Positions 3,335 through 50,115 of a stretch of DNA of 64,000 nucleotides are shown piece by piece. Each line of letters opens with the position of its first letter. Position 1 is the first letter of the stretch. The position numbers were made by a program, and so were the translations under genes. Source of the DNA: Gemmatimonadota bacterium (GTDB lineage: Bacteria > Gemmatimonadota > Gemmatimonadetes > Gemmatimonadales > GWC2-71-9); NCBI GenBank assembly GCA_024641735.1, contig JAHECN010000001.1, positions 1,036 to 65,035 on the forward strand, given 5' to 3'. The notes under the pieces are model-generated. The model had not been told where the DNA came from and did not search any database. It saw only the letters and a program-made list of their open reading frames with translations.

Positions 3335-3421
3335 GGAGAGAGGAGAAAAGAGAGAGGAGAAAGCGTGACCTGGGCTGCGGCTCTCCTCTCTCATTTCTCT
3401 TCTCTCCTCTCTCCTCTCTCC
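3335..3421. repeat. Heptad-built hairpin H1: polypurine arm facing a polypyrimidine arm
   Basis: The left arm is GGAGAGA GGAGAAA AGAGAGA GGAGAAA G (3335-3363) and the loop is cgtgacctgggctgcgg. The right arm (3381-3421) reverse-complements to GGAGAGA GGAGAGA GGAGAGA AGAGAAA TGAGAGA GGAGAG. The outer 12 bp are perfectly complementary. The right arm touches the mutM stop (cta at 3421-3423). Confidence 0.7.
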
Positions 3422-4245
3422 TAGTTTTGGCACCTCCAACACATCACCGTCCCTCTTGCATCGATCTCGTGCGTCGCAACAAGGCGCGTGCCGCAGGCGC
3501 GGCAGGGCTCCCCCTCACGACCGTACACATGCAGTTCAAGCTGGAAGTTGCCTGGCGCTCCAGTCGAGGAGACGTAATCGCGAAACGTCGTCCCTTCGGC
3601 GGCAATGGCCGCGGTCAGAATGCGGACGATGTGGCCATGGAGCATGCGGAGCTGCTCGGGTGGGACCCGCGCAGCGGCCTTGGATGGATCGATGCCGGAC
3701 GAGAAGAGCGCTTCGGCCGCGTAGATGTTGCCGACGCCGACCACGACGCGCTGATCCATGATCACTTTCTTGATCGCTGCACGCGACCTGGAGACGCGAT
3801 CCGTGAAGACGTCCGCGGTGAACGCCGGGTCGAGCGGTTCCGGGCCAAGGCGTGACGCATAGGCCAGCCACTCGGCGTCGTCACACCAGCGCAGCGTGCC
3901 GATGCGGCGCACGTCGCGGTACACCAGAGTGGCGCCGTCATCGAGCGGACAGACGAGCACGGCGTAGTGATCTTCCTCCTCCGACATCGGGCGATCGTAG
4001 ACCAGCAGCGATCCCGTCATCCCCGGCTGCACAGCGAGCGTCTTGGTGTCGGTCTGGAGGAGGGCATGCTTGGCGCGGCGGGTGACGTCGCGAATGGTGC
4101 GCCTGGGAAGTGCGCGGAGCAATTGGCGGGAAGTGACACCATCGAGCACGTTGTCGTGGCGGAGCGCTGCCGAGAGAATCGTACGCCCCGTGAGGCGGGC
4201 GCGAAGTTGGCGGACGAGGGTTTCGACTTCGGGGAGTTCAGGCAT
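3421..4245 (-). CDS. mutM: Formamidopyrimidine-DNA glycosylase (Fpg/MutM)
   Basis: 274 aa. N-terminal MPELPEVE and a C-terminal zinc finger (CRACGTRLVATHEIDARGTVMCWRCQ), with family-typical length. Confidence 0.95.
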   Translation of the reverse strand: MPELPEVETLVRQLRARLTGRTILSAALRHDNVLDGVTSRQLLRALPRRTIRDVTRRAKHALLQTDTKTLAVQPGMTGSLLVYDRPMSEEEDHYAVLVCPLDDGATLVYRDVRRIGTLRWCDDAEWLAYASRLGPEPLDPAFTADVFTDRVSRSRAAIKKVIMDQRVVVGVGNIYAAEALFSSGIDPSKAAARVPPEQLRMLHGHIVRILTAAIAAEGTTFRDYVSSTGAPGNFQLELHVYGREGEPCRACGTRLVATHEIDARGTVMCWRCQN

Positions 4246-4246
4246 G

Positions 4247-4373
4247 GGAGTCGTTGGTCATGAGTCGCTAGTCGTGAGAGGTTCCCTGCAACACGAAGAT
4301 CGAGCAAGACGGCGTCTGCCGCGAGGAGCAACCCGACACCCTCTCACGACTCGCGACTAGCGACTCACGACTC
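4247..4373. repeat. Heptad-built hairpin H2 (GAGTCG type) between purD and mutM
   Basis: The left arm (4247-4281) is GGAGTCG TTGGTCA TGAGTCG CTAGTCG TGAGAGG. The right arm (4340-4373) is cctctcacgactcgcgactagcgactcacgactc, with a loop of about 58 nt. The purD stop (cta at 4357-4359) and its last 5 codons lie inside the right arm. The left arm starts 2 nt from the mutM start codon (4243-4245). Confidence 0.7.
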
Positions 4374-5637
4374 TTGTCGCTTCTCTCCACCCAATGTCTC
4401 GCCGAAACTGCTTCCCCTCGAACTGAATCGCCGCAGCGGTGTCGCGGCTCAGGGCCTGCGCTTCCGCGAACGTCGCGGCCACGGCAGTCACCGCGAGCAC
4501 TCGACCGCCATTGGTGATCAGGCGACCGTCCTTGTTCAGCGCCGTGCCCGCGTGGTAAATCGTAACTCCCTCGTCGAGTGTGGCGGGAAGCGTGATCAGG
4601 TCCCCTTTGCTGCTCGACGCAGGATAGCCGGCGCTGGCCAGCACGGTGGTGACGGCGGCTGCGTCAATGAGATCAATTTTTGGTAATGGTTCTCCCTTCG
4701 CTGCCGCATCCAGTAGTGCCGAGAGTCCCGAGCGTACCAACGGCAACACAACTTCGGTTTCTGGATCACCGAGACGACAGTTGAACTCCACCACGTTGGG
4801 TGTCCCATCCGGATGGAGCATGATGCCGGCATAGAGGACGCCTCGGAACGGTGCGCCGCGACGCTCCAGCTCACGCAATGTCGGCAGGAGTACGTCCTGC
4901 GTGATGCGTTCGAGTACTGCTGGCGTGGCAATCGCCACCGGGGTATAGGCACCCATACCGCCGGTGTTCGGACCCGTGTCACCCTCACCGATGCGCTTGT
5001 GATCCTGTGCCGCCGGCAGCAGTCGCACGTCACGACCATTGGTGATCGCGAGCACCGAGAGTTCTTCGCCCTCGAGGAACGCCTCGATCACCACCACGTC
5101 TCCCGCATGGCCGAGCTGATGGTCGCCCATCATCGCACGGAGTGCGTCCACCGCTTCGGCGCGCGTGGCGCAGACGACGGCGCCCTTGCCGGCTGCGAGG
5201 CCGGAGGCCTTCACCACAAGGGGTTCTGGATGCGTCGCCACATACGCGAGCGCCGCATCCAGGTCATCGAAGGTGCGACTCGCCGCCGTGGGAACTCCCG
5301 CAGCAACCATCACATCCTTCGAGAAGGCTTTCGATGATTCGATCTGTGCTGCGGCCGCCACCGGACCAAACACATGGCGTCCCTCGGCGCGGAGGCGATC
5401 GGCGAGCCCCATCGCCAGCGGGACCTCGGGGCCAACGATCACCAGATCGATGGCGTGCGCATCCGCGGCATCGGCCAAGCGGTCGATGTCGTCTGCGGCA
5501 ATGGAGAGATTGGTGGCGAAGGAGGCGGTCCCGGGATTCCCGGGTGCGACATAGAGCACGTGCGTTGGGTCGTCCGCGGCGAGCGCGGCGGCGAGCGCAT
5601 GTTCTCGCCCGCCACCACCAACAACCAGAAGCCTCAC
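4357..5637 (-). CDS. purD: Phosphoribosylamine-glycine ligase
   Basis: 426 aa. Starts (GTG) with RLLVVGGGGREHALA, has an ATP-grasp core and VVEFNCRLGDPE. Full-length PurD-like. Confidence 0.95.
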   Translation of the reverse strand: MRLLVVGGGGREHALAAALAADDPTHVLYVAPGNPGTASFATNLSIAADDIDRLADAADAHAIDLVIVGPEVPLAMGLADRLRAEGRHVFGPVAAAAQIESSKAFSKDVMVAAGVPTAASRTFDDLDAALAYVATHPEPLVVKASGLAAGKGAVVCATRAEAVDALRAMMGDHQLGHAGDVVVIEAFLEGEELSVLAITNGRDVRLLPAAQDHKRIGEGDTGPNTGGMGAYTPVAIATPAVLERITQDVLLPTLRELERRGAPFRGVLYAGIMLHPDGTPNVVEFNCRLGDPETEVVLPLVRSGLSALLDAAAKGEPLPKIDLIDAAAVTTVLASAGYPASSSKGDLITLPATLDEGVTIYHAGTALNKDGRLITNGGRVLAVTAVAATFAEAQALSRDTAAAIQFEGKQFRRDIGWREATRVVSR

Positions 5638-12981: not shown

Positions 12982-13428
12982 ATGCGAATAGTCTTGCAGC
13001 GGGTGCGGGAGGCCTCGGTCACGATCGCGGGATCCGTGGTGGGCGCCGTGAATCAGGGATTTCTTCTGCTGGTCGGCTTCGCCCCGGGCGACACGCGCGC
13101 CGAGGCGGAGTGGCTGGCCGAGAAGGTGGTGGGATTGCGGCTCTTCAGTGACGCGGATGGGAAGATGAATCTGGATCTGGCTGCGGTGGGCGGTGAGCTT
13201 CTGGTGGTCTCCCAATTCACACTCTATGGTGATGCATCCCGCGGTCGGCGGCCCTCGTTCATCGCGGCGGCGCGGCCGGAGGAAGCGATCCCGCTGTATG
13301 AGCACTTCCTCGCAACACTGCGTGCCATGGGGTGCCGAGTGGCGGCTGGAGAGTTCGGCGCGGACATGCAGGTCGCCCTCGTCAACGATGGTCCGGTGAC
13401 ACTTCTCCTGGAGCGCTCCCCCGAATGA
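12982..13428 (+). CDS. dtd: D-aminoacyl-tRNA deacylase
   Basis: MRIVLQRV... start at 12982, with SQFTLYGD and NDGPVT motifs. 148 aa. Confidence 0.93.
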
Positions 13429-13994
13429 TGCCGACGCTGGTCCTTGCCTCTGCCTCGCCACGGCGTCGGCAGTTGCTCGAGATGCTGCACCTGCCGATTC
13501 TCGTCATGCCGGCAGACGTGCAGGAAATTCCGCTTCCGCGAGAAGCGCCGGCCGCCTACTCGCGCCGATTGGCGCGTGACAAGGCTGGTGCGGTGCCCGG
13601 ACAACTCATTCTGGGCGCGGATACCATCGTGGTCCTCGATGGCGAAATCCTCGAAAAGCCTGCGGACGTTGAACACGCCGTCGCGATGCTGCTGCGACTG
13701 CAGGGGCGCAGTCACACCGTGATTACCTCCATCTGTCTGATCGCCAATGGTCTCGCACTCGAAGCCGCGGATGAAACGACGGTCACCTTTCGGCCAGCGA
13801 CGGAGGAGTATCTCCGCGCGTATGTCGCCACCGGCGAACCGATGGACAAGGCCGGATCCTATGGCATCCAGGGGTGGGGTGCGGCGCTGGTCGAACGGAT
13901 CGAGGGCGATTTCTTCAGCGTGATGGGATTGCCCGTGCGGCTGGTATTGGAGTTGTTGGAGGAGGCGGGGTATGGATACAGGTTCGAGTCGTGA
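13425..13994 (+). CDS. maf: Maf-family nucleoside triphosphate pyrophosphatase
   Basis: The [18 protein letters not shown] start overlaps the dtd stop (ATGA). [10 protein letters not shown] motif present. The last codons, TTC GAG TCG TGA, lie inside hairpin H3. Confidence 0.9.
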
Positions 13995-14067
13995 GTCGCG
14001 AGTCGTGAGAGGAGCGACGGGGGGTGCCAAGCCTCTCTCACGACCAACGACTCACGACTCAAGACTC
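13986..14067. repeat. Heptad-built hairpin H3 (GAGTCG type) between convergent maf and trpE
   Basis: The left arm (13986-14012) is GAGTCGT GAGTCGC GAGTCGT GAGAGG, with a 19-nt loop. The right arm (14032-14067) is cctctctcacgaccaacgactcacgactcaagactc. Both flanking genes stop inside the arms. Confidence 0.75.
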
Positions 14068-15542
14068 ATTGCAAGCGCCAGCAACACCGCCCCCGCCTTC
14101 GCGACCGTTTCCTCAAACTCCGCCTGCGGTTGCGAGTCCGCCACGATCCCGGCGCCGGCCTGGACGTAGGCGGTGCCGCCGGTGAAGACCACCGACCGAA
14201 TCGCAATCGCGGTATCGAGCGTGCGAGCACCGTACCCGACGTAGCCCACCGCGCCGGCGTACGGACCGCGCCGGGTCGGCTCCAACGTGTCAATGATCTG
14301 CATCGCCCGGACCTTGGGCGCGCCGCTGACGGTGCCCGCCGGGAAGGTCGCTGCGAGGGCATCGAGGGCGTCGAGCCCATTGCGCAGCATGCCCCGGACT
14401 TCGCTGACCAGGTGCATCACGCGAGAGTATCGCTCGGTGACCATCTGCTGCACGACGCGCACCGTGCCATACTCGGCCACGCGTCCAACATCGTTGCGGC
14501 CGAGATCGACCAGCATCAAATGCTCGGCACGTTCCTTCGCGTCGGCGTGCATCTCCGCCTCAAGCGCGAGATCGTGCGCGTGATCGCGCCCTCGCGGTCG
14601 GGTCCCCGCGATCGGACGGACCGTGACCTCGTCTTGTTCGACGCGCACCAGTACTTCGGGTGATGCGCCGGCGATCTGCAGCGGCCCGAGTGCCAGATAG
14701 AAGCAATAGGGTGACGGGTTCATCGCGCGGAGCCAGCGGTACGTCAGGAACGGGTCAGGTGCCGGCGTGACATCCATGCGCCGAGAAAGGACGATTTGGA
14801 AAGCATCGCCGGCCGCCACGTACTCCTTGCAGCGCGCCACGTCGCGTCGGTAGTCGTCGTCCGCGTAGGGTGAGGACGCGGCGGCGGGTGCGACCTCTCT
14901 GGGAGTGAGCGGAGCGAGTTGCCCCGGCACCCCGAGGCGGTCGATCCACTCGCCCATGCGCGTTTCCGCCGCGCTGATGCGGCGGTGCAGTGTTGCGTCG
15001 TCCAGCGCTGGGGAGACGGCGACGTTGGCGATCACGATGGCACGGTGATACAAGTTGTCGAGCACGAGGAGGGTGTCCACGACCATCGCGACGGCATCCG
15101 GAAGGTCACGATCGTCGGGCGGTGCGTCCGGAAGCGATTCAATGCCACGCACGACGTCATAGCCCCAGAAGCCGACCGCACCACCAGTGAACCGCGGCAG
15201 TCCCTCGATCGGCATGGCGCGATCTTGCCGCAGGAGATCACCCAGATGGGCGAGTGGCGGAAGTGCGTTCGAGTGGATCTCCCAGGTGCCGTCTGGCCGG
15301 CGCTGTTCCGCGCGGTTGCCGCGATACCGGAACACGGATTCCGGCTCGGTGGCGAGGAAGGAATAGCGCGCCCACCGTTCACCACCCTCGAGGGATTCGA
15401 GCAGGAAGCCGTATTCGCCAACGTGCACCTTCGCGAATGCGGAGACTGGCGTATCGCCGTCGAGGACCACGGCGCGGGTCAGGGGCACCCGAGTGTATCC
15501 CGCCTCCGCGGCCATCCGGCACTGCGCGAAGATGTCGCTCAT
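14052..15542 (-). CDS. trpE: Anthranilate synthase component I
   Basis: 496 aa of full-length chorismate-binding enzyme similarity (…LESLEGGERWARYSF…, …GAVGYVGY…). Ends ...ATG AGT CTT GAG TCG TGA inside H3. Confidence 0.95.
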   Translation of the reverse strand: MSDIFAQCRMAAEAGYTRVPLTRAVVLDGDTPVSAFAKVHVGEYGFLLESLEGGERWARYSFLATEPESVFRYRGNRAEQRRPDGTWEIHSNALPPLAHLGDLLRQDRAMPIEGLPRFTGGAVGFWGYDVVRGIESLPDAPPDDRDLPDAVAMVVDTLLVLDNLYHRAIVIANVAVSPALDDATLHRRISAAETRMGEWIDRLGVPGQLAPLTPREVAPAAASSPYADDDYRRDVARCKEYVAAGDAFQIVLSRRMDVTPAPDPFLTYRWLRAMNPSPYCFYLALGPLQIAGASPEVLVRVEQDEVTVRPIAGTRPRGRDHAHDLALEAEMHADAKERAEHLMLVDLGRNDVGRVAEYGTVRVVQQMVTERYSRVMHLVSEVRGMLRNGLDALDALAATFPAGTVSGAPKVRAMQIIDTLEPTRRGPYAGAVGYVGYGARTLDTAIAIRSVVFTGGTAYVQAGAGIVADSQPQAEFEETVAKAGAVLLALAMSLES

Positions 15543-35303: not shown

Positions 35304-35355
35304 GCACCGGGCCCCATGGGTGGCCGAATGGCAGGCGGTGTGTCGAGCGAGGAGA

Positions 35356-35437
35356 TGCGAGCGCCGGGAGTCGAACCCGGACGGGTTTCCCCACAGGATC
35401 CTAAGTCCTGCGCGTCTGCCAGTTCCGCCACGCTCGC
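35356..35437 (-). tRNA. tRNA-Leu: tRNA-Leu (anticodon TAG), class II with a long variable arm; CCA not encoded
   Basis: The reverse complement is GCGAGCGTGGCGGAACTGGCAGACGCGCAGGACTTAGGATCCTGTGGGGAAACCCGTCCGGGTTCGACTCCCGGCGCTCGCA. The acceptor stem GCGAGCG/CGCTCGC pairs. The anticodon stem is CAGGA/TCCTG with loop CTTAGGA, and the T-loop is GGTTCGACTCC. Confidence 0.9.
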
Positions 35438-35537
35438 TGATTCGGGGGAAGCTAACCGCCGAGCTATCCCCTTTCCACGTCCGGCCGATCTGTGGCTATC
35501 TTACAGCCCAGTTCACTTCAGCTCTCCGAGGATCCGC

Positions 35538-35885
35538 GTGACGCAAGGTTGGCAATCCCGGGCCATTGTGGCCCTCTGTGGCAGCATCATCCTGACCGCC
35601 TGTGGCGACAGCCGCCTCGACAAGCTGTCGGCCAATATCTCCAAGGACAGCGTCGCGGTCATCATGAAGACCGATTCGCCCCATTCGGCGGCCTCGTACC
35701 TGACCAACGGCCAGCTCTGGGAGATCCAGTTCTACACCCGCAAGGAAGTCGCCCTCACCGATTCGGTGGATTGGCGCGACATGAGCCCGGTGGTCTTCTC
35801 GGATGGGCATGTGGCGGGCTGGGGCTGGAACTACTGGGAGAAGGAAGCCGCGACGCTGCAGATCCCGATGCCGCCGAAGAAGTAG
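35538..35885 (+). CDS. Hypothetical small lipoprotein
   Basis: GTG at 35538 gives (M)TQGWQSRAIVALCGSIILTAC with lipobox LTAC. The upstream part of track ORF 35316-35885 overlaps the tRNA and is rejected. Confidence 0.6.
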   Translation: MTQGWQSRAIVALCGSIILTACGDSRLDKLSANISKDSVAVIMKTDSPHSAASYLTNGQLWEIQFYTRKEVALTDSVDWRDMSPVVFSDGHVAGWGWNYWEKEAATLQIPMPPKK

Positions 35886-35887
35886 AC

Positions 35888-35995
35888 GGAGAACAGAGAA
35901 CAGAGAACCGAAAAAACCGAGGGGTGAAGGGTCAGGGGTTGTTCCCCCTCACTCCTCACCCCTCACTCGTGTCCGTTCTCTGTTCTCTGTTCTCC
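35888..35995. repeat. Heptad-built nested hairpin H4 between convergent lipoprotein and htrA genes
   Basis: The outer arms, GGAGAAC AGAGAAC AGAGAAC (35888-35908) and gttctctgttctctgttctcc (35975-35995), are perfect 21-nt reverse complements. The inner arms are cGAGGGGT GAAGGGT CAGGGG (35918-35938) and ccccctcactcctcacccctcactcg (35944-35969), around the loop ttgtt. The arms start 2 nt from each flanking stop codon. Confidence 0.85.
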
Positions 35996-35997
35996 AG

Positions 35998-37566
<1,569 letters not shown>

Positions 37567-39711: not shown

Positions 39712-39795
39712 AAGGAGAGAGGAGAAACGAGAAAGGAGAGAGGAGGGAGCCAGAAGTCAGCGGCTCTTCTCTCCTTTCTCCTCTCTCTTCCCTCC
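39712..39795. repeat. Heptad-built hairpin H5 (polypurine/polypyrimidine type)
   Basis: The left arm is AAGGAGA GAGGAGA AACGAGA AAGGAGA GAGGAGG GAG (39712-39749), with loop ccagaagtcagcgg. The right arm is ctcttctctcctttctcctctctcttccctcc (39764-39795). Complementarity is imperfect purine:pyrimidine pairing. The element ends 1 nt before the stop of the BNR-repeat gene (39797). Confidence 0.65.
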
Positions 39796-39796
39796 G

Positions 39797-42793
39797 TTAG
39801 GGTAGCCACCTCTTGGCGTCCGCCTGCGCCGCATCCAGCTCCTTCCGCAGCACGGCATGCCGTGCAATGGCGTCCCGGCCGATCTTCTGGTCGGCGCCGG
39901 AGGTCATGCCGGCCAGGTAGGAGATGTGAGCCTGGAGCCCCGGCTTGCCGTAGCGGACTGGTTCGGTGTTGAGGACGGCCGCAAGCGCCTGCACCCGAGC
40001 CAGCGTGTCCGCCGCGGCACCGGTCGCGCCGCGGAGCCGCGTCTCGGCGGCCCGGACTCGACTGACCAGCGTACCCACCTCGGCCACCATCGCGCGCATG
40101 GTTCGATTGTGGGTGAACTGTTCGACGAGGTCCGCCTCGGTGGTGCCGTCGGCCGCGATCCGCGGGTCAATGCGGACGCGGAGTGGGACTTCGCGGATCT
40201 GGTCCCCGACAGTCAGGCGAACTTGGTAGCGACCCGGGGGGGCTCCCAAGCCGTCATGGGTTCGGACGTCCCAGGTGAATCGGTTGAGGCCAATGGTGTT
40301 GCTCGGCCGTGACGCAGCACCGCCGCCGCCGCGTCCTCCGCGCCCGGCAAGCATCGGCGCGTCGGGGTCATCAGGGTCGGTCTGGGCGGCAGCGGCCGGA
40401 CGAGCGGAGGGCGATGCCCCGGCGGGGGCCGCGCTGCTGTACTGGTTCACCACGGCCCCGGTCGAGTCGAGGATCTCGAGTTGCACGACGGCACCAGCCG
40501 AGGGCAAGCGGTACTCGATCATCGGGCCCAGTTTCTCGGCACTGGTGCGTGTCTTGTAGCCGTCTCGAGGGGCGAAGAGGATCACCGAGTCGGTACGCGT
40601 CGCTCCGGTGAGTTGATGCAGCATCGAGAGGTTGTCGACGATCCAGAAGGCACGGCCCTGGGTCGCGACGATCAGGTCTTTGCGGTACACCTTGATGTCG
40701 TTGATCGGGACGTTCGGCAGATTGAGCTGGAATGACTGCCAGTGGTCGCCATCGTCGAAGGAGATGAACATGCCGAATTCGGTCCCGGCGTAGAGGAGGC
40801 CGGGGCGATCGGGATCTGCGCGCACGACGCGCGTCGGCCAGTCCGCGGGAATCCCGGTCACGATGCGCGTCCAGCTCTTGCCGTAGTCGGTGGTGCGATA
40901 GAGGTACGGCGCATAGTCGCCGAGGAGGTAGCGATAGATCGCGGCGTAGGCGGTGCCATTGCGATGTGGCGAGGCCTCGATCCACTGCACTCGGCCGCCT
41001 TCCGGGAGTCCGGCCGGGGTCACCTTCGTCCACGTCTTGCCATCGTTCCGGGTGACATGAATCGGGCCATCATTGGCACCAGCCCAAATCACGCCCTTCT
41101 CCCGCGGTGACTCGGTGATCGCGTAGAGCGTGCTGTAGAACTCTTCGCCGGTCACGTCACGCGTGATCGGGGTGCCGCTCGCACCCTGACAGCAGGCGGG
41201 ATACGAGGTGAGGTCGGGCGAGATCTGCTCCCACGTCACGCCCTGATCGCGCGTGCGGTGGACATACTGCGAGCCAAAATAGAGGACCGACGGATCGTGC
41301 GGCGAGAGCGCCATCGGTGACACGCGCTGCATGCGCCAGATGAGGTCGCTGCCCGCATTGCCGTAGAGCGATTGGCCGCCCACCCAATAGTTTTTCGACT
41401 GCCCCGTGCGACGATTCATCACCGAGAATTGTCCCTTGCAGGCGCCGTAGATCACGTTCGGATCTGCGGGATGCGGGATGATCGGTCCGGTTTCACAGCC
41501 GGGAGTGGTGCCGAGCTCTTCGCGCGGGCCAGGCACCGATTGCGACGAGAGCTGCATCGTCGAGTTGTCTTGTTGGGCGGCGTAGAGGTTGTACGGAAAG
41601 GCATCGTCGACCCAGACGCCGTACAGCTCCGAGGTTGGCTGATTGTTCTGTGTGGACCAGGTCCGGCCGCCGTCGAAGGAGATGTTGGCACCACCATCGT
41701 TCGATTGGATCATGGTGTTGCCGTCGGTCGGATTGATCCAGATGTCGTGATTGTCGCCGTGCGGTGTGCGCATGGTGGTCATTGTCTTGCCGCCGTCGAC
41801 CGACTTGTAGAATCCTTCCGCGCCGGCATACACCACGTCCGCATTGGTCGGATCCGCACCGAGCGTGGTGTAGTAGAAGGGACGCTGCAGCAAAGAGCCC
41901 TGACTGTTCATCAGCACCCATGTGAGGCCGGCGTCGTCGGAGCGATAGAGTCCACCACCCGGCAGCGCCTCGATGAGGGCGTACACGCGCTGCGGATTCG
42001 CGGCGGTGACCGCGAGATTCGCCTTGCCGAGGAGATCCTGCGGAAGACCGGTCGTGATGTGCGTCCACGTCACCCCACCGTCGGTACTCCGGTAGAAGCC
42101 ACCTTCCCGCGCGCCGCTGATGATGGTCCATGGCTTCCGCTCGATCCTGGACATCCACGCATAGACGATGTTCGGATTGCTCGGGTGGATCTCCACATCC
42201 ATCGCGCCGCTGCTGTCGGAGACGAAGAGCGTCCGCTGCCAGGTCTTCCCACCATCTGTTGTCCGGTAGACACCGCGCGCCGGCGACGGTTTGAAGATGT
42301 CGCCGTTGGCGGCGACGAGGACGGTGTTGGGGTCGCGCGGGTGAATTGCCACGGCCCCGATTTGTCCGACGTCGTACAGCCCGGCGAATTGCCAGCTCTT
42401 CCCGGCGTCACCGGAACGGTACACACCTCGCCCCGTCGAGACGTTGCTGCGCACGCCGTCTGAGCCCGTGCCGAGATAGACGACGTTGGGATCGCTATCG
42501 GCGACGCGGATCGCTCCGGTGGAGCCGACCGGGATTTGTCCGTCGCTGATCGGATCCCAGCGGACGCCGCCATCGGTCGTCTTGAAGACGCCCCCACTTG
42601 CCACGCCCATGTAGAACGTCTTGGGTTGGGATGGGACGCCTGTCACTGTGGTGACACGGCCGCCGCGCGATGGTCCGACCAGTCGATACTGCAGCCCCTC
42701 AAGGAGCGTGGGGTGGATTGGTGCCGCGGATTGGCCGCCGAGCGGCAGCGCGAACAGCAGGAAGAGTGCGCCACAGAAGGCGGGGAGCTTCAT
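39797..42793 (-). CDS. Secreted BNR/Asp-box repeat beta-propeller protein (sortilin/VPS10-like, GH74-like fold)
   Basis: 998 aa with a signal peptide. More than 10 Asp-box motifs (TTDGGVRWD, SGDAGKSWQ, TTDGGKTWQ, STDGGVTWT, SDDAGLTWV, TRDQGVTWE, RNDGKTWT, TTDYGKSWT…). There is a C-terminal Ig-like region plus a helical tail. Confidence 0.85.
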   Translation of the reverse strand: MKLPAFCGALFLLFALPLGGQSAAPIHPTLLEGLQYRLVGPSRGGRVTTVTGVPSQPKTFYMGVASGGVFKTTDGGVRWDPISDGQIPVGSTGAIRVADSDPNVVYLGTGSDGVRSNVSTGRGVYRSGDAGKSWQFAGLYDVGQIGAVAIHPRDPNTVLVAANGDIFKPSPARGVYRTTDGGKTWQRTLFVSDSSGAMDVEIHPSNPNIVYAWMSRIERKPWTIISGAREGGFYRSTDGGVTWTHITTGLPQDLLGKANLAVTAANPQRVYALIEALPGGGLYRSDDAGLTWVLMNSQGSLLQRPFYYTTLGADPTNADVVYAGAEGFYKSVDGGKTMTTMRTPHGDNHDIWINPTDGNTMIQSNDGGANISFDGGRTWSTQNNQPTSELYGVWVDDAFPYNLYAAQQDNSTMQLSSQSVPGPREELGTTPGCETGPIIPHPADPNVIYGACKGQFSVMNRRTGQSKNYWVGGQSLYGNAGSDLIWRMQRVSPMALSPHDPSVLYFGSQYVHRTRDQGVTWEQISPDLTSYPACCQGASGTPITRDVTGEEFYSTLYAITESPREKGVIWAGANDGPIHVTRNDGKTWTKVTPAGLPEGGRVQWIEASPHRNGTAYAAIYRYLLGDYAPYLYRTTDYGKSWTRIVTGIPADWPTRVVRADPDRPGLLYAGTEFGMFISFDDGDHWQSFQLNLPNVPINDIKVYRKDLIVATQGRAFWIVDNLSMLHQLTGATRTDSVILFAPRDGYKTRTSAEKLGPMIEYRLPSAGAVVQLEILDSTGAVVNQYSSAAPAGASPSARPAAAAQTDPDDPDAPMLAGRGGRGGGGAASRPSNTIGLNRFTWDVRTHDGLGAPPGRYQVRLTVGDQIREVPLRVRIDPRIAADGTTEADLVEQFTHNRTMRAMVAEVGTLVSRVRAAETRLRGATGAAADTLARVQALAAVLNTEPVRYGKPGLQAHISYLAGMTSGADQKIGRDAIARHAVLRKELDAAQADAKRWLP

Positions 42794-44346: not shown

Positions 44347-44423
44347 GGGGGCGACTCCGTGTTGTGAGGATCCGGTAATGATGCTGCAGAGATAGGGATC
44401 GCGAAAGCCTCGCGACTCCCTGC

Positions 44424-45728
44424 TCACGACTCTCGACTCATCTTCATTCCCTGCCAGCTCCCATACGTCCAACTCCGCCACAACCATTCCATCGGTCCGA
44501 AGCGGAAGCGCGCCAGCCACCACTGGGAGAAGATCGTCTGCACCACCAGGATCGCGAGGGCGAGCGGGGCCAGCCAGGTCGCCCCGACGCGGCCCGCGAG
44601 CCCGAACCCGATGCCGTAGAAGATCGTGATGCCGATCAGGGTCTGCATCAGGTAATTCGTGAGCGCCATCCGTCCCGTGGGCGCCAGCCACACGAGGACA
44701 CGCTGCCACGCAGCGCGCTGCCACAGCAGCACAAAGCCGGCGGTGTAGGCGAGTGCGAGGGGGATGACGCCGACGGCGTACAGCGCGCTCTCAAGGACGC
44801 CGTGCCATGTACCTGAGTAGTAGGCGTCCTGATTCGACACCGCGGCGAGTGCGAGCGACGCCGGGAGTCCGAGGGCGAGTCCCCACCCGAGTGTGCGGCG
44901 AAGCAGCGGCAGGTGGGGTTCGATCTGTTCCCACGGGCGGTGACGGCCAATCACCATGCCGAGGAGGAACATCGCCAACACCTTGAAGGGACGGCCCGTG
45001 AAGGTCAGGTCAGCAAATCGCCACCAGATGCCACCAAAATTGATCTGGAAGAATTCCAACCAACCGCCGTTGCCGAGATGATCGTACATGAAGGTGGGTG
45101 TGTTCCCGGTATAACCGAGGAGCTCAGCCACCCCCGTGCCGATGATCCAGAACGGCGCGGCAAGCGTCACGACGGGGCTGAGCAGCAGCGGCAAGTAGAA
45201 GACGACCGGCAGGAACGTCAGGAGAACGATCCAGCGCAGGAGCCGGGCGTCATCGAGTCCTCGCATCCGGAACATGATCAGGCCCATCACGGCGTAGAAG
45301 AAGAGGATGTCACCAGTCCAGAAGAGTGCCAGGTGGACACCCCCAATCACCATGAGGATTCGGAGCCGACGACGATAGAGACGCAGCGCGAGCGCCTCGT
45401 CCGTTCGCCGCATCAACTGTAGCGCGAATCCCAATCCGAAGAGGAGCGAGAAGATCGAATAGAACTTGCCGTCTACCAGCGCGTGGTAGAGGAAGGCTGC
45501 CGTCTCGTCGGTGGCGAGTCGCCATGCCGGGGTGAGCTCGGCCGTGCCGGGGTAGTCCCAGAACGCGAACGCCACCGAGAGATTGCCGAGGCAGACGCCG
45601 AAGAGCGCAAAACCCCGGAGCGCGTCGATCAGTGTGGCGCGGGCCTCGGGGCGGGTCGGCTGTGGTTGGAGCGGTGTGTGGCCCGTGGAAGGCGGGGAAA
45701 CCGCTTCGCGGGGGAGCGCTTCAGACAT
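44424..45728 (-). CDS. DUF418/YeiB-like polytopic membrane protein
   Basis: IDALRGFALFGVCLGN near the N-terminus and multiple hydrophobic helices. I prefer ATG 45728 (MSEALPRE…). Ends …CGA GAG TCG TGA. Confidence 0.75.
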   Translation of the reverse strand: MSEALPREAVSPPSTGHTPLQPQPTRPEARATLIDALRGFALFGVCLGNLSVAFAFWDYPGTAELTPAWRLATDETAAFLYHALVDGKFYSIFSLLFGLGFALQLMRRTDEALALRLYRRRLRILMVIGGVHLALFWTGDILFFYAVMGLIMFRMRGLDDARLLRWIVLLTFLPVVFYLPLLLSPVVTLAAPFWIIGTGVAELLGYTGNTPTFMYDHLGNGGWLEFFQINFGGIWWRFADLTFTGRPFKVLAMFLLGMVIGRHRPWEQIEPHLPLLRRTLGWGLALGLPASLALAAVSNQDAYYSGTWHGVLESALYAVGVIPLALAYTAGFVLLWQRAAWQRVLVWLAPTGRMALTNYLMQTLIGITIFYGIGFGLAGRVGATWLAPLALAILVVQTIFSQWWLARFRFGPMEWLWRSWTYGSWQGMKMSRES

Positions 45729-46569: not shown

Positions 46570-47597
46570 CGACGACCGATCACCGGGCCCGGACAGGCCG
46601 CACGGCACCAGAATACGTGGTACGCGGCGACAACGCCATCGAGCCACCCATTGTGAGGAATCCGGGAACCCCGCTCGACCTCTCTTGGGTCCAGGATCTC
46701 CGCATCAACCGCAGCGCGGTCGAGCGGCGGGCCGCCACGATCCCGACGCGTCGCTCCGTCAAGAGCGCGTGGCAGGCCGGATGGCTCCTGCGCGCCATCA
46801 CGTTGATGGATCTCACGACCCTCCAGGGTGACGATACCGCGGGACGCGTGCGTCGGCTCTGTGCCAAGGCGCGTCAGCCAGTCCGGCCTGACATTCTCGA
46901 GGCGCTTGGCATGGGAGGCACGTCGGTGCATGTCGCGGCCGTCTGTGTCTACCACGCCTTTGTGCGGACTGCGGTCGACGCACTCGCCGGAAGCGGGATT
47001 CCCGTCGCAGCGGTGTCCACGGGATTCCCGGCCGGGTTGTCGCCGCTGGCGACACGGATCGCGGAGATCGAGGCATCCGTCGCCGACGGAGCAGAGGAGA
47101 TCGACATCGTGATCACCCGAGCCCACGTGCTCAACGAGGACTGGCAGGCACTCTACGACGAGGTCCGGACCTTCCGTGCCGCGTGCGGACACGCCCACCT
47201 CAAAGCGATCCTTGGCACCGGTGAGTTGGCGACGCTACGGAACGTCGCCCGCGCATCCGCCGTCGCGATGATGGCCGGTGCGGACTTCATCAAGACGAGC
47301 ACCGGGAAGGAGCCCGTCAATGCCACCCTCCCGGTCGGCATCGTGATGGCACGGATGATTCGCTCCTACCGCGAGCGTACGGGCTACTTGGTTGGCTTCA
47401 AGCCGGCGGGTGGAGTACGGAAGGCCAAGGAAAGCTTGGATTGGCTCGCCATGATGAAGGAAGAACTCGGCGACCGCTGGCTCCGCCCGGAGCTCTTTCG
47501 CTTCGGCGCGTCATCGCTGTTGACCGATATCGAACGGCAATTGGAACACCATGTGACCGGGCGCTATTCGGCGGCGCATCGGCATCCGATGGCGTGA
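46566..47597 (+). CDS. deoC: Deoxyribose-phosphate aldolase (long form)
   Basis: ATG at 46566 overlaps the rhomboid stop (ATGA). DLTTLQGDDT and the Schiff-base lysine context ADFIKTSTGKE. Confidence 0.88.
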   Translation: MTTTDHRARTGRTAPEYVVRGDNAIEPPIVRNPGTPLDLSWVQDLRINRSAVERRAATIPTRRSVKSAWQAGWLLRAITLMDLTTLQGDDTAGRVRRLCAKARQPVRPDILEALGMGGTSVHVAAVCVYHAFVRTAVDALAGSGIPVAAVSTGFPAGLSPLATRIAEIEASVADGAEEIDIVITRAHVLNEDWQALYDEVRTFRAACGHAHLKAILGTGELATLRNVARASAVAMMAGADFIKTSTGKEPVNATLPVGIVMARMIRSYRERTGYLVGFKPAGGVRKAKESLDWLAMMKEELGDRWLRPELFRFGASSLLTDIERQLEHHVTGRYSAAHRHPMA

Positions 47598-47604
47598 AGT
47601 AGGC

Positions 47605-47669
47605 GCGAGTCGCGAGTCGCGAGAGTGAGGGAAACCTCTCACGACTATCGACTCATGACTCACGACTCA
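47605..47669. repeat. Heptad-built hairpin H6 (GAGTCG type) between deoC and the ALDH gene
   Basis: The left arm is GCGAGTC GCGAGTC GCGAGAG TGAGGG (47605-47631), with loop aaa. The right arm is cctctcacgactatcgactcatgactcacgactca (47635-47669). Complementarity is imperfect. It starts 7 nt after the deoC stop. Confidence 0.7.
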
Positions 47670-47705
47670 CAGCACCACATTCACCATTCCACCAGGCTCC
47701 AAACC

Positions 47706-50078
47706 ATGACCTCTGTCCGCGACGCATTCGATTCCATGGCCTGGAGCCCGGCTCCAGAGTCCACGTCAGTGGCCACGGAATGGCTCGACCGCACGGACCG
47801 TCGCTTCGGCCAGTTCATCAACGGCGCATGGACGGCCCCAGCGGATACGTTCGCAGTCCTGAATCCTGCGACGGCGGAGGAACTCGCATACGTCTCGCAG
47901 GCGGATGAGGGCACCGTGGACGCCGCGGTTGCCGCCGCGCGGGCGGCGCTGCCGGGATGGCAAGCGCTGGGTGGGCACGGGCGGGCACGGTGGCTCTATG
48001 CGATTGCACGTGGCCTGCAGCGCCACTCGCGCCTCTTCGCCGTCATTGAGTCGCTCGACAACGGCAAGCCGATTCGGGAGTCGCGCGACATCGACATCCC
48101 GCTGGTGGCACGACACTTCTCGCATCATGCCGGGTGGGCGCAGCTCCTCGAGACAGAGTTCCCGGGGATGCAGGGCGTTGGGGTGGTGGGGCAAGTCATC
48201 CCGTGGAACTTCCCGCTGCTGATGCTCTCCTGGAAGATTGCGCCGGCACTCGCCGCCGGGAATACTGTCGTCTTGAAGCCTGCCGAGTTCACGCCGCTCA
48301 CGGCGCTCTGCTTCGCCTCGATGCTGGAAGAACTCGGCTTTCCGAAGGGCGTGGTCAACATCGTGACGGGCGATGGCCGAACGGGCGCCGCACTCGTGGG
48401 CCACCCCGACGTCAACAAGATCGCCTTCACGGGTTCCACGGATGTCGGGCGTGCAATTCGTGGCGCGACGGCAGGGAGCGGCAAGAAGCTCTCCCTCGAG
48501 CTGGGTGGGAAGTCGCCCTTCATGGTCTTCGACGACGCGGATCTCGATTCGGTGGTGGAGGGCGTGGTCGACGCGATCTGGTTCAACCAGGGACAGGTCT
48601 GCTGTGCCGGTTCGCGGATTCTGGTTGCCGAGAGCATCGCGGAGCGCCTGATCGCGAAGCTGCGTGATCGGATGGAGCGTCTTCGGGTGGGATCACCACT
48701 CGACAAATCGGTGGATATCGGCGCGATCGTCGCGAAGGTGCAACTCGACCGGATCACCGAAATGGTGGCACTCGGCCAAGAGGAAGGTTCCACCTGTTGG
48801 CAGCCGTCCTGGAGCGTGCCGACCGAAGGCTTCTTCTACCCACCAACACTCTTCACCGGCGTGCAGCCGGCCGCCACGATCGCGCAGGAGGAGATCTTCG
48901 GGCCGGTCGTCGTGTTGTTGACGTTCCGGACGCACGATGAAGCGGTCGAGATCGCCAACAACAGTCGCTATGGACTCGCGGCGAGTGTGTGGAGCGAGAA
49001 CCTGAACCTCGCGCTCGACATCGCGCCGCGATTGAAGGCCGGCACCGTCTGGGTCAACAGCACCAATCTCTTCGATGCCGCGAGTGGCTTCGGCGGGTAT
49101 CGGGAAAGCGGCTACGGCCGGGAAGGTGGTCGCGAGGGGATGTACGAGTATCTCGCGTCGACGCAGGCGAAGGGCGCCGAACGCACCACGTGGGAGGCCC
49201 CTGCGGCAGACGCGGGACGCGGCGATCAACCCGCGCTTCCTCCCGTTGATCGGACCCCGAAGCTGTACATCGGTGGCAAGCAGGCGCGGCCCGATTCCGG
49301 CTACGCCATTCCGGTCGTGGGCGCGTCGGGGAAGGTGGTCGGCGAGGTGGGTCGGGGCAATCGGAAGGACATCCGGAACGCCGTCGAGGCGGCCCATGCG
49401 GCGCAGTCCAAGTGGGCGAACGCGACGGCGCACAATCGTTCCCAGGTGCTCTACTTCCTTGGCGAGAATCTGGCGGCGCGGCGAGAGGAGTTCGCGTCCC
49501 GGTTGAAGACACTCACCGGAACCGATGGCGCCGCCGAAGTCGAGGCGTCGGTGCGACGCTGCTTCACCTGGGCGGCGTGGGCCGACAAGTACGATGGGGC
49601 AGTGCATCACACCCCACTGCGGAACGTGACGCTCGCAATGCCGGAAGCGATCGGCGTGATCGGCGTGCGCTGCCCCGACGAGGCACCGTTGCTTGGCCTG
49701 CTGTCCTGCATCCTTCCGGCGATCGCCATGGGGAATGCTGTGGTTGCGATCCCATCACCGGTCGCTCCGTTGTTGGCGACCGATTTGTATCAGGTGTTGG
49801 ATACATCTGATGTCCCAGGTGGCGTGGTGAACTTTGTGACCGGGCTCCCTGGGGAATTGCTGGCGGCCTTGGCCGGACACGACGATGTGGACGCGTGCTG
49901 GTGCTTCGGCACTCACGCCGAGGCCACGGAGGTCGAGCGACTCTCCACTGGCAATCTCAAACGCACCTGGGCGGAGTGGACGGTTCGCGACTGGGGAAGT
50001 GTGGCGGGCGGGGAAGGGACCGAGTTCCTGCGGCACGCGACGCAGGTGAAGAATATTTGGGTGCCGTACGGGGCCTAG
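47706..50078 (+). CDS. Aldehyde dehydrogenase fused to a second, truncated ALDH-like domain
   Basis: I prefer ATG 47706 (MTSVRDAF…). Domain 1 has ELGGKSP and FNQGQVCCAGSR (catalytic Glu and Cys). The C-terminal about 300 aa again resemble an ALDH NAD-binding half (PKLYIGGK…KWANATAHNRSQVLY…), but I could not find the Glu or Cys motifs there. Confidence 0.88.
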   Translation: MTSVRDAFDSMAWSPAPESTSVATEWLDRTDRRFGQFINGAWTAPADTFAVLNPATAEELAYVSQADEGTVDAAVAAARAALPGWQALGGHGRARWLYAIARGLQRHSRLFAVIESLDNGKPIRESRDIDIPLVARHFSHHAGWAQLLETEFPGMQGVGVVGQVIPWNFPLLMLSWKIAPALAAGNTVVLKPAEFTPLTALCFASMLEELGFPKGVVNIVTGDGRTGAALVGHPDVNKIAFTGSTDVGRAIRGATAGSGKKLSLELGGKSPFMVFDDADLDSVVEGVVDAIWFNQGQVCCAGSRILVAESIAERLIAKLRDRMERLRVGSPLDKSVDIGAIVAKVQLDRITEMVALGQEEGSTCWQPSWSVPTEGFFYPPTLFTGVQPAATIAQEEIFGPVVVLLTFRTHDEAVEIANNSRYGLAASVWSENLNLALDIAPRLKAGTVWVNSTNLFDAASGFGGYRESGYGREGGREGMYEYLASTQAKGAERTTWEAPAADAGRGDQPALPPVDRTPKLYIGGKQARPDSGYAIPVVGASGKVVGEVGRGNRKDIRNAVEAAHAAQSKWANATAHNRSQVLYFLGENLAARREEFASRLKTLTGTDGAAEVEASVRRCFTWAAWADKYDGAVHHTPLRNVTLAMPEAIGVIGVRCPDEAPLLGLLSCILPAIAMGNAVVAIPSPVAPLLATDLYQVLDTSDVPGGVVNFVTGLPGELLAALAGHDDVDACWCFGTHAEATEVERLSTGNLKRTWAEWTVRDWGSVAGGEGTEFLRHATQVKNIWVPYGA

Positions 50079-50115
50079 AAGAGAAAAGAGAGAAGAGAAA
50101 AGAGAGAAGAGAGGG
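50078..50115. repeat. One-armed polypurine heptad tandem repeat between convergent ALDH and ppx genes
   Basis: AAGAGAA AAGAGAG AAGAGAA AAGAGAG AAGAGAG GGG begins at the last base of the TAG stop (50076-50078). No complementary pyrimidine arm occurs before the ppx stop (50140). Confidence 0.7.

Follow-up and report, generated by a model that had tools for sequence, protein, structure and literature searches.

Why two convergent genes should terminate inside the two arms of a single hairpin, and with the same nine nucleotides, is the question raised by the maf/trpE junction in a 64,000-nt stretch of a Gemmatimonadota contig (JAHECN010000001.1; the whole stretch is referred to here as the window). 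The first-pass annotation had interpreted this junction as a combined multi-frame stop and RNA-structure module. Our results indicate that the feature probably consists of inverted heptanucleotide simple sequence repeat (SSR) arrays that pair into a long, imperfect hairpin occupying the whole maf-trpE gap and extending beyond it, the shared gene endings being a by-product. Two parts of the earlier interpretation, the element-derived C-termini and the rotating TGA, withstood the analysis, whereas the dedicated stop module did not.

The junction is made up as follows.

13425..13994, plus strand: maf, 189 amino acids from ATG; core ends ...GYGYRF; final two codons and stop form the first repeat unit
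13986..14011, plus strand: 5' (left) arm, GAGTCGT GAGTCGC GAGTCGT GAGAG
14012..14034, no strand assigned: loop and inner bulge, GAGCGACGGGGGGTGCCAAGCCT; differs among orthologous loci (not conserved)
14035..14067, plus strand: 3' (right) arm, CTCTCACGACCAACGACTCACGACTCAAGACTC
14052..15542, minus strand: trpE, anthranilate synthase component I, 496 amino acids; core ends near ...ALA; tail MSLES and stop from the right arm

The hairpin is 82 nt long (13986-14067) and holds both stop codons within its arms. The last codons of maf (PF02545, Pfam) are TTC GAG TCG TGA (stop 13992-13994, plus strand) and those of trpE (PF04715 and PF00425, Pfam; minus strand) are CTT GAG TCG TGA (stop 14052-14054), so that the two share the terminal 9-mer GAGTCGTGA. 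The endings and stop coordinates first reported for these genes, and for a third gene of the DUF418 family, were all confirmed by the sequence. Only 57 nt separate the maf and trpE stops, less than the length of the hairpin itself. The inverted repeat is imperfect, 13986-14011 being 88% complementary to 14035-14060, and it reaches 14067; the predicted RNA fold has a minimum free energy of −50.7 kcal/mol on the plus strand and −56.5 kcal/mol on the minus strand (z-scores −5.6 and −7.2). Its overall architecture is (GAGTCGT)n...(ACGACTC)n, an inverted pair of heptanucleotide tandem arrays with three to four units on the left and four to five on the right.

The left arm holds the Glu-Ser codons of Maf with their TGA (13992-13994) and a second TGA at 14006-14008; these lie 14 nt apart, in two different frames, and GAGTCGC in the middle position leaves the third frame without a stop. 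The right arm, complementary to ATGAGTC TTGAGTC GTGAGTC GTTGGTC GTGAGAGAGG, reads on the minus strand as a (GAGTCNT)n array with TGA in all three frames, and it encodes the TrpE tail M-S-L-E-S and the stop 14052-14054. The proposal that TGA rotates through the reading frames of (GAGTCGT)n is borne out by these arrays. It is also correct that the palindrome offers the same arm to both genes, though this is a property of any palindrome.

The two identical 9-mers are not an independent coincidence, because every TGA in (GAGTCGT)n follows GAGTCG in any frame; both genes run into the array and therefore terminate in the same 9-mer. Since the final T of one unit is joined to the GA of the next, a frame entering the G-rich arm meets a stop after three units at most. 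The 9-mer occurs eight times in the window versus 0.93 expected (0 of 100 shuffles reach eight). It ends three of the 49 window genes (maf, trpE and the DUF418 gene) versus 0.022 expected from window codon usage, a roughly 140-fold excess; the frequency comparison that the first-pass annotation had called for thus gave, among the window genes, a value far above codon usage.

The GAGTCGT family is represented in the window by three full copies (13986-14067, 4248-4373 and 47600-47671) and one degenerate half (44412-44445). The full copies have in common the inner stem GTGAGAGG...CCTCTCAC, with the right arm exact and some left arms approximate. Further heptamer elements have unrelated units, so that the window contains, besides the maf/trpE hairpin, the following.

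4248..4373, no strand assigned: sister hairpin, 126 nt, with inner stem GTGAGAGG...CCTCTCAC; purD stop in the right arm, fpg start abutting the left arm
47600..47671, no strand assigned: sister hairpin between a DeoC-family gene (stop 47595-47597, plus strand) and an aldehyde dehydrogenase gene (start about 47706, plus strand)
44412..44445, minus strand: degenerate half element, ATGAGTC GAGAGTC GTGAGCA GGGAGTC...; gives the DUF418 tail MSRES and stop
3340..3423, no strand assigned: heptamer-arm hairpin of a stop-free family, GAGAGGA/GAGAAAA with TCCTCTC; fpg stop TAG (3421-3423, minus strand) at the arm edge
35886..35990, no strand assigned: composite heptamer hairpin, (CAGAGAA)n and (GGGTGAA)n pairing with (CCCTCAC)n and (TTCTCTG)n
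39712..39793, no strand assigned: stop-free purine/pyrimidine heptamer hairpin with purine arms GAGAGGA/GAGAAAA, upstream of dnaK
50079..50113, plus strand: single (AAGAGAG/AAGAGAA)n array with no partner arm, beginning one base past the TAG (50076-50078) of an aldehyde dehydrogenase gene

The purD gene (4357-5637, minus strand; GARS_N/A/C domains) has its TAG stop at 4357-4359, inside the right arm of the 4248-4373 hairpin as had been noted, and the ATG of fpg (4243-4245, minus strand) abuts the same hairpin without any Shine-Dalgarno-like sequence. The DUF418 gene (PF04235; 44424-45818, minus strand) ends CGA GAG TCG TGA, with its stop at 44424-44426. The 35886-35990 hairpin lies 7 nt from the stop of an HtrA-like protease gene (35998-37566, minus strand), and the 39712-39793 hairpin 3 nt from the TAA stop (39797-39799, minus strand) of a BNR/sortilin-like gene. 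The four elements with unrelated, mostly stop-free units (3340-3423, 35886-35990, 39712-39793 and 50079-50113) are thus each 0-7 nt from a stop codon. The families GAGAGGA, CAGAGAA and AAGAGAG have no stop in any frame and still start at this distance. A stop codon lies no more than 9 nt upstream of every one of the eight heptamer elements of the window.

Among short periods, 7 alone is enriched in the window, with eight regions versus none at periods 5, 6, 8 and 9, and it dominates the other loci that we collected as well (300 regions across 1.35 Mb). Period-7 arrays and hairpins form a genome-wide population, of which the maf/trpE hairpin is one member. Seeding from the maf stop codon as the sole origin of the unit was rejected, as the GAGTCGT unit and the inner core are also found at unrelated junctions. 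Next to the composite hairpin, an open reading frame of 189 amino acids (ORF; 35316-35885, plus strand) matches no Pfam family and overlaps a tRNA gene encoded on the other strand (35356-35437, minus strand); it is unlikely to be a genuine gene.

Names attached to close TrpE, Maf and PurD homologues place the source, a metagenome-assembled genome, in the Gemmatimonadales. Synteny of the convergent trpE and maf genes extends to Gemmatimonadales relatives. Among the further loci from which both the maf and the trpE gene ends were recovered, a heptamer hairpin lies between the two genes in seven of eight (seven other lineages), and an array in all eight. Junction hairpins were found in the loci L082, L083, L084, L196-L201, L202 and L205, L204 being the one without a hairpin. 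The repeat unit differs between lineages.

Window: GAGTCGT
L196-L201: GAGTCCT, in six samples with identical Maf protein
L082: TAGTCGT / TGGTCGT
L083: AAGTCGT and TAGTCGT, with 7 units towards trpE and about 12 towards maf; 183 nt between stops
L202: AAGTCGT / AGGTCGT
L084: GAGTCTT / GAGTCCT
L205: GAGACGA, stop-free

Complementarity of the arms is kept while the unit sequence changes from lineage to lineage. Fold z-scores of the seven junction-hairpin loci that were scored, window included, range from −3.4 to −11.6, and the L205 junction folds at −89.4 kcal/mol with its right arm included. Within the L196-L201 group, the left arm of L198 has four GAGTCCT units versus five in L196, L197 and L199-L201, giving intergenic gaps of 103 versus 110 nt. 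This 7-nt polymorphism occurs among loci with identical Maf, and leaves both the TrpE and Maf tails unaffected. These results show that the junction hairpin is inherited across Gemmatimonadales lineages and that its copy number changes in steps of 7 nt. We read the complementary drift of both arms as the outcome of slippage with arm-to-arm homogenisation, or of compensatory selection.

Two loci show what happens when the array is translated or reduced. In L205, TrpE is translated across the whole 5' arm (...GETRDERRETRGIT, then the stop) and terminates in the loop. In L204 (4450-4530), one array is left and its partner arm is gone; only 3 nt separate the stops of maf and trpE, and TrpE reads antisense through (TAGTCGT/TGGTCGT)n to end in ...TTNDERPTTND. 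At the purD-fpg junction of L083 (20704-20745), a 30-nt (ATCGATC)n array stands in place of the 126-nt GAGTCGT hairpin seen in the window.

A scan of metagenome contigs with TrpE as a single protein returned no relatives. An alignment-based rescan returned mostly distant loci without a maf neighbour; of the loci examined from it, L001-L010 and L024, most have a different downstream gene. Methylation at CcrM-type GANTC sites (here GAGTC) was dropped as a reason for the unit, the orthologous arrays using TAGTCGT and AAGTCGT. The loops of L081, L082, L196-L201, L083 and L202 (also those of L118, L167, L174, L182 and L189) hold a second small palindromic repeat of GTCATCCTGAGCGAAG...GGA type, which resembles one dispersed element nested within another.

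The earlier suggestion that the final Glu-Ser residues derive from the element was examined in homologue alignments, where variable tails follow conserved cores in Maf, TrpE and PurD. The 120 Maf homologues are conserved up to ...AGxxYxF and then carry tails of 0-22 residues (mode 2). Only three of them end in ES, and shared ES endings independent of a hairpin, the outcome that would have spoken against the suggestion, were not found. TrpE homologues extend 9-39 residues beyond the last conserved motif, their core ending ...ALxLA, and PurD homologues are conserved until ...DIGWRExxR and variable afterwards. Many tails can be read as translated heptamers: ETRDERRETRDE, TNDERPTTND, QRTENGE, EKREARSEK and IDHRSSIIE. 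PurD tails such as IDRQSFIDHRSSIIE (homologues P0288, P0294 and P0244) read as translations of (ATCGATC)n. Homology of the DUF418 protein stops 2-10 residues short of the C-terminus of the window protein, which is weak evidence on its own.

These alignments support the view that the repeats supply the C-terminal residues of Maf, TrpE and PurD after their conserved cores. The ES-stop endings and the element-derived C-termini are by-products of the position of the array, directly behind the conserved core of the protein. Gemmatimonadales arrays routinely write or extend the C-termini of these housekeeping enzymes. For annotation, tails such as ETRDERRETRDE are better regarded as repeat read-through than as protein domains, and comparative genomics of 3' ends should assign the tail to the adjacent repeat and not to the gene.

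The orientation of the arms is strongly biased. Of the 72 heptamer-arm hairpins of the window and L003-L205, 68 have a 5' arm in which G outnumbers C, and none has one in which C outnumbers G; counting distinct non-target units, the arm is G-rich in 27 of 28 (sign test, p = 7e-9). The same holds for arrays flush with a 3' end (121 cases), the G-rich strand being the gene sense strand in 100 of the 116 with unequal G and C. No C occurs in stop codons, in start codons or in Shine-Dalgarno motifs, and as possible causes of the polarity they are not separable here.

The GAGTCGT unit also recurs far from the window. Scanning species-representative genome contigs for AGTCGNNAGTCGTGAGAGG gave at least 111 stretches (L085-L195). 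Among the matches listed, (GAGTCGT)n-GAGAGG was found at about 37 loci in one Chloroflexia metagenome-assembled genome (MAG), in three Thermomicrobiales MAGs, in at least 12 Gemmatimonadota MAGs and in several Bacteroidota. The (GAGTCGT)n matches often adjoin a second array with another unit (GAGTAAC, GTGAAAC or CGTAGGT).

Two kinds of larger structure were seen among these loci. A composite of about 125 nt, (TAGTCGT)n-GAGAGGGGTTCC...CCCCCTCTC-GGTCGCCGACC-GAGAGGGGG...GGAACCCCTCTC-(ACGACTA)n, is present in L098 (7380-7520), L124 (minus strand) and L151 (1-130 and 770-905). The copies in a Gemmatimonadales MAG and on a contig of 4.5 kb that bears the label Spirochaetae HGW-7 are near-identical, which mis-binning or horizontal transfer could explain. 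In L116, L128 and L160 (Gemmatimonadaceae MAG_AAO_AS.50), (GAGTCGT)2-GAGAGG runs directly into a short GC-rich stem, GGGGCGGCC...GGCCGCCCC, and then a T-rich tail, with the look of a conventional terminator.

The selected module proposed originally would combine multi-frame stops with an RNA hairpin to terminate ribosomes from either side, in any frame, at a structured site. Four window genes do terminate within arms of the GAGTCGT family, the gene-facing strand is C-poor (stop codons are C-free), and the 5'-arm polarity is universal. The bearing of stops on the arrays was measured in period-7 arrays from loci fetched for other reasons, with a coding-like frame within 12 nt of the array; GAGTCGT-like units were excluded from this sample to avoid ascertainment bias. 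A stop-bearing unit was present on the gene sense strand in 25 of 53 arrays versus 17.8 expected from shuffled units, and on the antisense strand of the same arrays in only 6 versus 8.2. Among 60 distinct units TGA was the most enriched trinucleotide (19 versus 9.2 expected), whereas neither TAG (6 versus 9.3) nor TAA (2 versus 4.2) was enriched, and units with any stop numbered 27 versus 22.1, so that stop-bearing units are only weakly enriched. This shuffled-unit null is complicated by the genome-wide trinucleotide frequencies, for which the ratio to the value expected from composition is 1.32 for TGA, 0.27 for TAG and 0.12 for TAA. Moreover, the units are non-independent samples, and base composition alone gives most of the sense/antisense asymmetry (17.8 versus 8.2 expected).

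Of the arrays flush with gene ends, half are devoid of any stop; where the array is stop-free, the stop of the gene itself still falls at −7 to +7 of the array start about half of the time, stop-free families being equally flush with stops. The stop-free orthologous hairpin of L205 is simply translated, and in L204 TrpE passes antisense through the array. Variants that destroy the stop have also been homogenised into arrays, GAGTCGC in the window and GGGTCGT and GAGTCGG elsewhere. In-arm stops therefore look like a frequent but dispensable property rather than a conserved function, and a selected stop cassette is in our judgement distinctly unlikely. A milder version, in which arms that carry stops and are poor in C would be the kind tolerated beside coding ends, may hold. 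A broader version would see polar cassettes at 3' ends across phyla, with a G-rich, C-poor and often GTGA-type gene-facing arm selected for closing all frames within about 21 nt and rewriting C-termini, possibly with a factor that recognises or spreads GAGTCGT...GAGAGG units; with every frame closed over so short a distance, an RNA structure prone to slippage could safely abut a coding end. We give this version little credence, while the strict G-rich-first polarity and the occurrence of one unit across phyla, neither of which follows from slippage alone, merit study at genome scale.

Other explanations dispense with the stops. The arrays could be functionless slippage DNA under mutation pressure only, with the hairpin layout arising by template switching. 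The 7-nt copy-number polymorphism inside one species, the turnover of units between lineages, the loss of the hairpin in L204 with no obvious consequence and the lack of a G·U sense bias all fit, and the literature credits polymerase slippage for the excess of heptamers (PMC4679880, PMC4692102). Yet the hairpin is kept at the junction in eight of nine loci (the window and seven of the eight others) with complementarity surviving replacement of the unit, and the polarity is strict and the placement at 3' ends consistent, which makes this explanation unlikely. A mobile element resembling a repetitive extragenic palindrome (REP) or a MITE (miniature inverted-repeat transposable element), inserting at or next to stop codons with a stop of its own, would account for three and a half copies in 64 kb with the inner stem GTGAGAGG...CCTCTCAC. 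It would also suit the larger relatives with a conserved nested-palindrome core of about 70 nt, present on several contigs and in two MAGs with different labels (L098, L124 and L151), and the loops that host other small repeats. Against it, the hairpin occupies the maf/trpE junction in seven of eight related loci (a single array in L204) that differ by unit drift and copy number, with neither an array-free locus nor a target-site duplication among them; there is no GTAG or CGTC head, and no transposase domain was present among the 42 window ORFs scanned with Pfam. We consider mobility of this kind quite improbable.

Translational control has also been considered: with the stop inside the stem, the hairpin would slow termination, and at purD-fpg the stopping ribosomes would free the fpg AUG. 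The geometry there would allow such coupling through hairpin melting, the purD stop lying in the 5' arm of the mRNA and the fpg ATG directly past the 3' arm with no Shine-Dalgarno sequence, and a stop codon precedes all eight window elements at 9 nt or less. Such a slowing of termination is reported for REPs that lie up to about 15 nt from a stop codon, a result ascribed to Liang, Rudd and Deutscher in 2015. This idea is based on position alone, the L083 purD-fpg junction holds just the short (ATCGATC)n array, and convergent pairs have no downstream gene to couple; it is very unlikely to be the explanation.

The account that we prefer, and regard as probable, is that of inverted heptamer SSR arrays. 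A G-rich (GAGTCGT)n array followed by its complement (ACGACTC)n forms the hairpin between the convergent genes; copy number changes in whole units, presumably by slippage, and the unit drifts while the arms stay complementary. The closing TGA of a G-rich arm is always preceded by GAG TCG and gives Glu-Ser-stop. Arrays would come to lie flush with stop codons because nothing functional stands between stop and array, so that spacer DNA is lost, and C-poor or stop-bearing facing strands would be tolerated because a change in copy number then leaves the protein unaltered. Any role of the hairpin would most likely be, by analogy, that of a REP-like 3'-end RNA structure shared by both convergent transcripts, which may act as a barrier to read-through or to 3' exonucleases. 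An odd-looking coincidence of gene ends would then be a mechanical property of a known repeat class.

Several observations count against this account. Slippage alone predicts neither the strict 5'-arm polarity nor the twofold enrichment of TGA among distinct units, and neutral slippage leaves the recurrence of the GAGTCGT unit with its GAGAGG end across phyla unexplained; the inner core common to the sister copies hints at dispersal by mobility or conversion. As regards the proposed RNA role, a G·U asymmetry test for selection at the RNA level was null (18 hairpins more stable in sense, 17 in antisense), and the hairpin has no U-tract and is not a canonical intrinsic terminator. Terminating ribosomes would have to melt most of the 5' arm before reaching the stop, and because the stop lies within the stem, translation would disrupt the hairpin.

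Comparison with known systems places the element more closely. Like bidirectional intrinsic terminators it puts a strong hairpin between two convergent stops, but it has no flanking A/U tracts, its stem is much longer and both stop codons are inside it. A consensus scan gave no terminator-like site on either strand of 13700-14400, and this identity was rejected; the scan gave no promoter at the hairpin site either. Only tRNA passes the Rfam gathering threshold in the window, and the hairpin matches no family. At lenient thresholds it gives miRNA-precursor matches of 20-28 bits versus thresholds of 73-168, typical of generic hairpins.

REPs and bacterial interspersed mosaic elements (BIMEs) of enterobacteria and pseudomonads are dispersed imperfect palindromes at 3' ends that can stabilise upstream mRNA and affect translation near a stop codon. 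The present element is likewise a dispersed extragenic imperfect palindrome at 3' ends, but its arms are 26-33 nt of variable-number tandem heptamers and are headed by neither GTAG nor CGTC, so that REP identity was rejected. The 42 ORFs scanned with Pfam, a set outside which fall seven ORFs between 55871 and 63604, include no REP-associated tyrosine transposase (RAYT) gene or transposase domain. A MITE was rejected too, an array being present at every related junction fetched and the arms having no flanking direct repeats.

Heptamer repeats have been described in several bacteria. An excess of heptanucleotides among prokaryotic SSRs, explained by slippage, and the short tandemly repeated repetitive (STRR) heptamers of cyanobacteria are known from Mrazek et al. 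(2007) and Mazel et al. (1990), as cited in PMC4679880 and PMC4692102. As in long prokaryotic SSRs so described, period 7 dominates here and slippage accounts for copy-number changes, and we found head-to-tail 7-nt units with whole-unit copy variation between close relatives (L198). Hairpin pairing, polarity and overlap with stops go beyond those descriptions as cited. The TAACTGA repeats of marine Beggiatoaceae and cyanobacteria are intergenic, occur across phyla and have stops in all three frames, for which reason those overlapping ORFs are necessarily at ORF ends (MacGregor 2015, PMC4679880). Nearly all of them are direct repeats immediately upstream of start codons, only one case being inverted, whereas ours are inverted pairs at 3' ends. 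No published account of the GAGTCGT unit emerged when the literature was searched in full text for the repeat sequence.

A dedicated stop device is thus not supported by good evidence, and the repeat class is one already known in other bacteria. Of the systems described so far, the nearest is that of the G-rich heptameric intergenic repeats found in Xanthomonas, (GGGAATC)n, and in Nostoc, (GGGGAYT)n (Rehm et al. 2015, PMC4692102). Two Xanthomonas genomes contain 186 and 183 arrays, with 70 and 75 convergent pairs able to form stem-loops; positional conservation between species is 83%, with changes in length, and the arrays mostly lie 0-50 bp past the stop on the coding strand, some overlapping the stop (PMC4692102). 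Unlike these repeats, the unit described here carries a stop at each junction of units, its arms intrude into coding sequence and write C-terminal residues, and its hosts are Gemmatimonadales, the GAGTCGT unit being found also in Chloroflexota and Bacteroidota. A G-quadruplex, possible in Xanthomonas, is impossible here because GAGTCGT has no G-tracts (it failed the G3-4 test). In all other defining features the element is a member of this class: intergenic tandem 7-nt units, many of them in convergent inverted pairs that form a stem-loop, with the G-rich strand on the coding strand after the stop and the same gene context kept among relatives while length and sequence vary.

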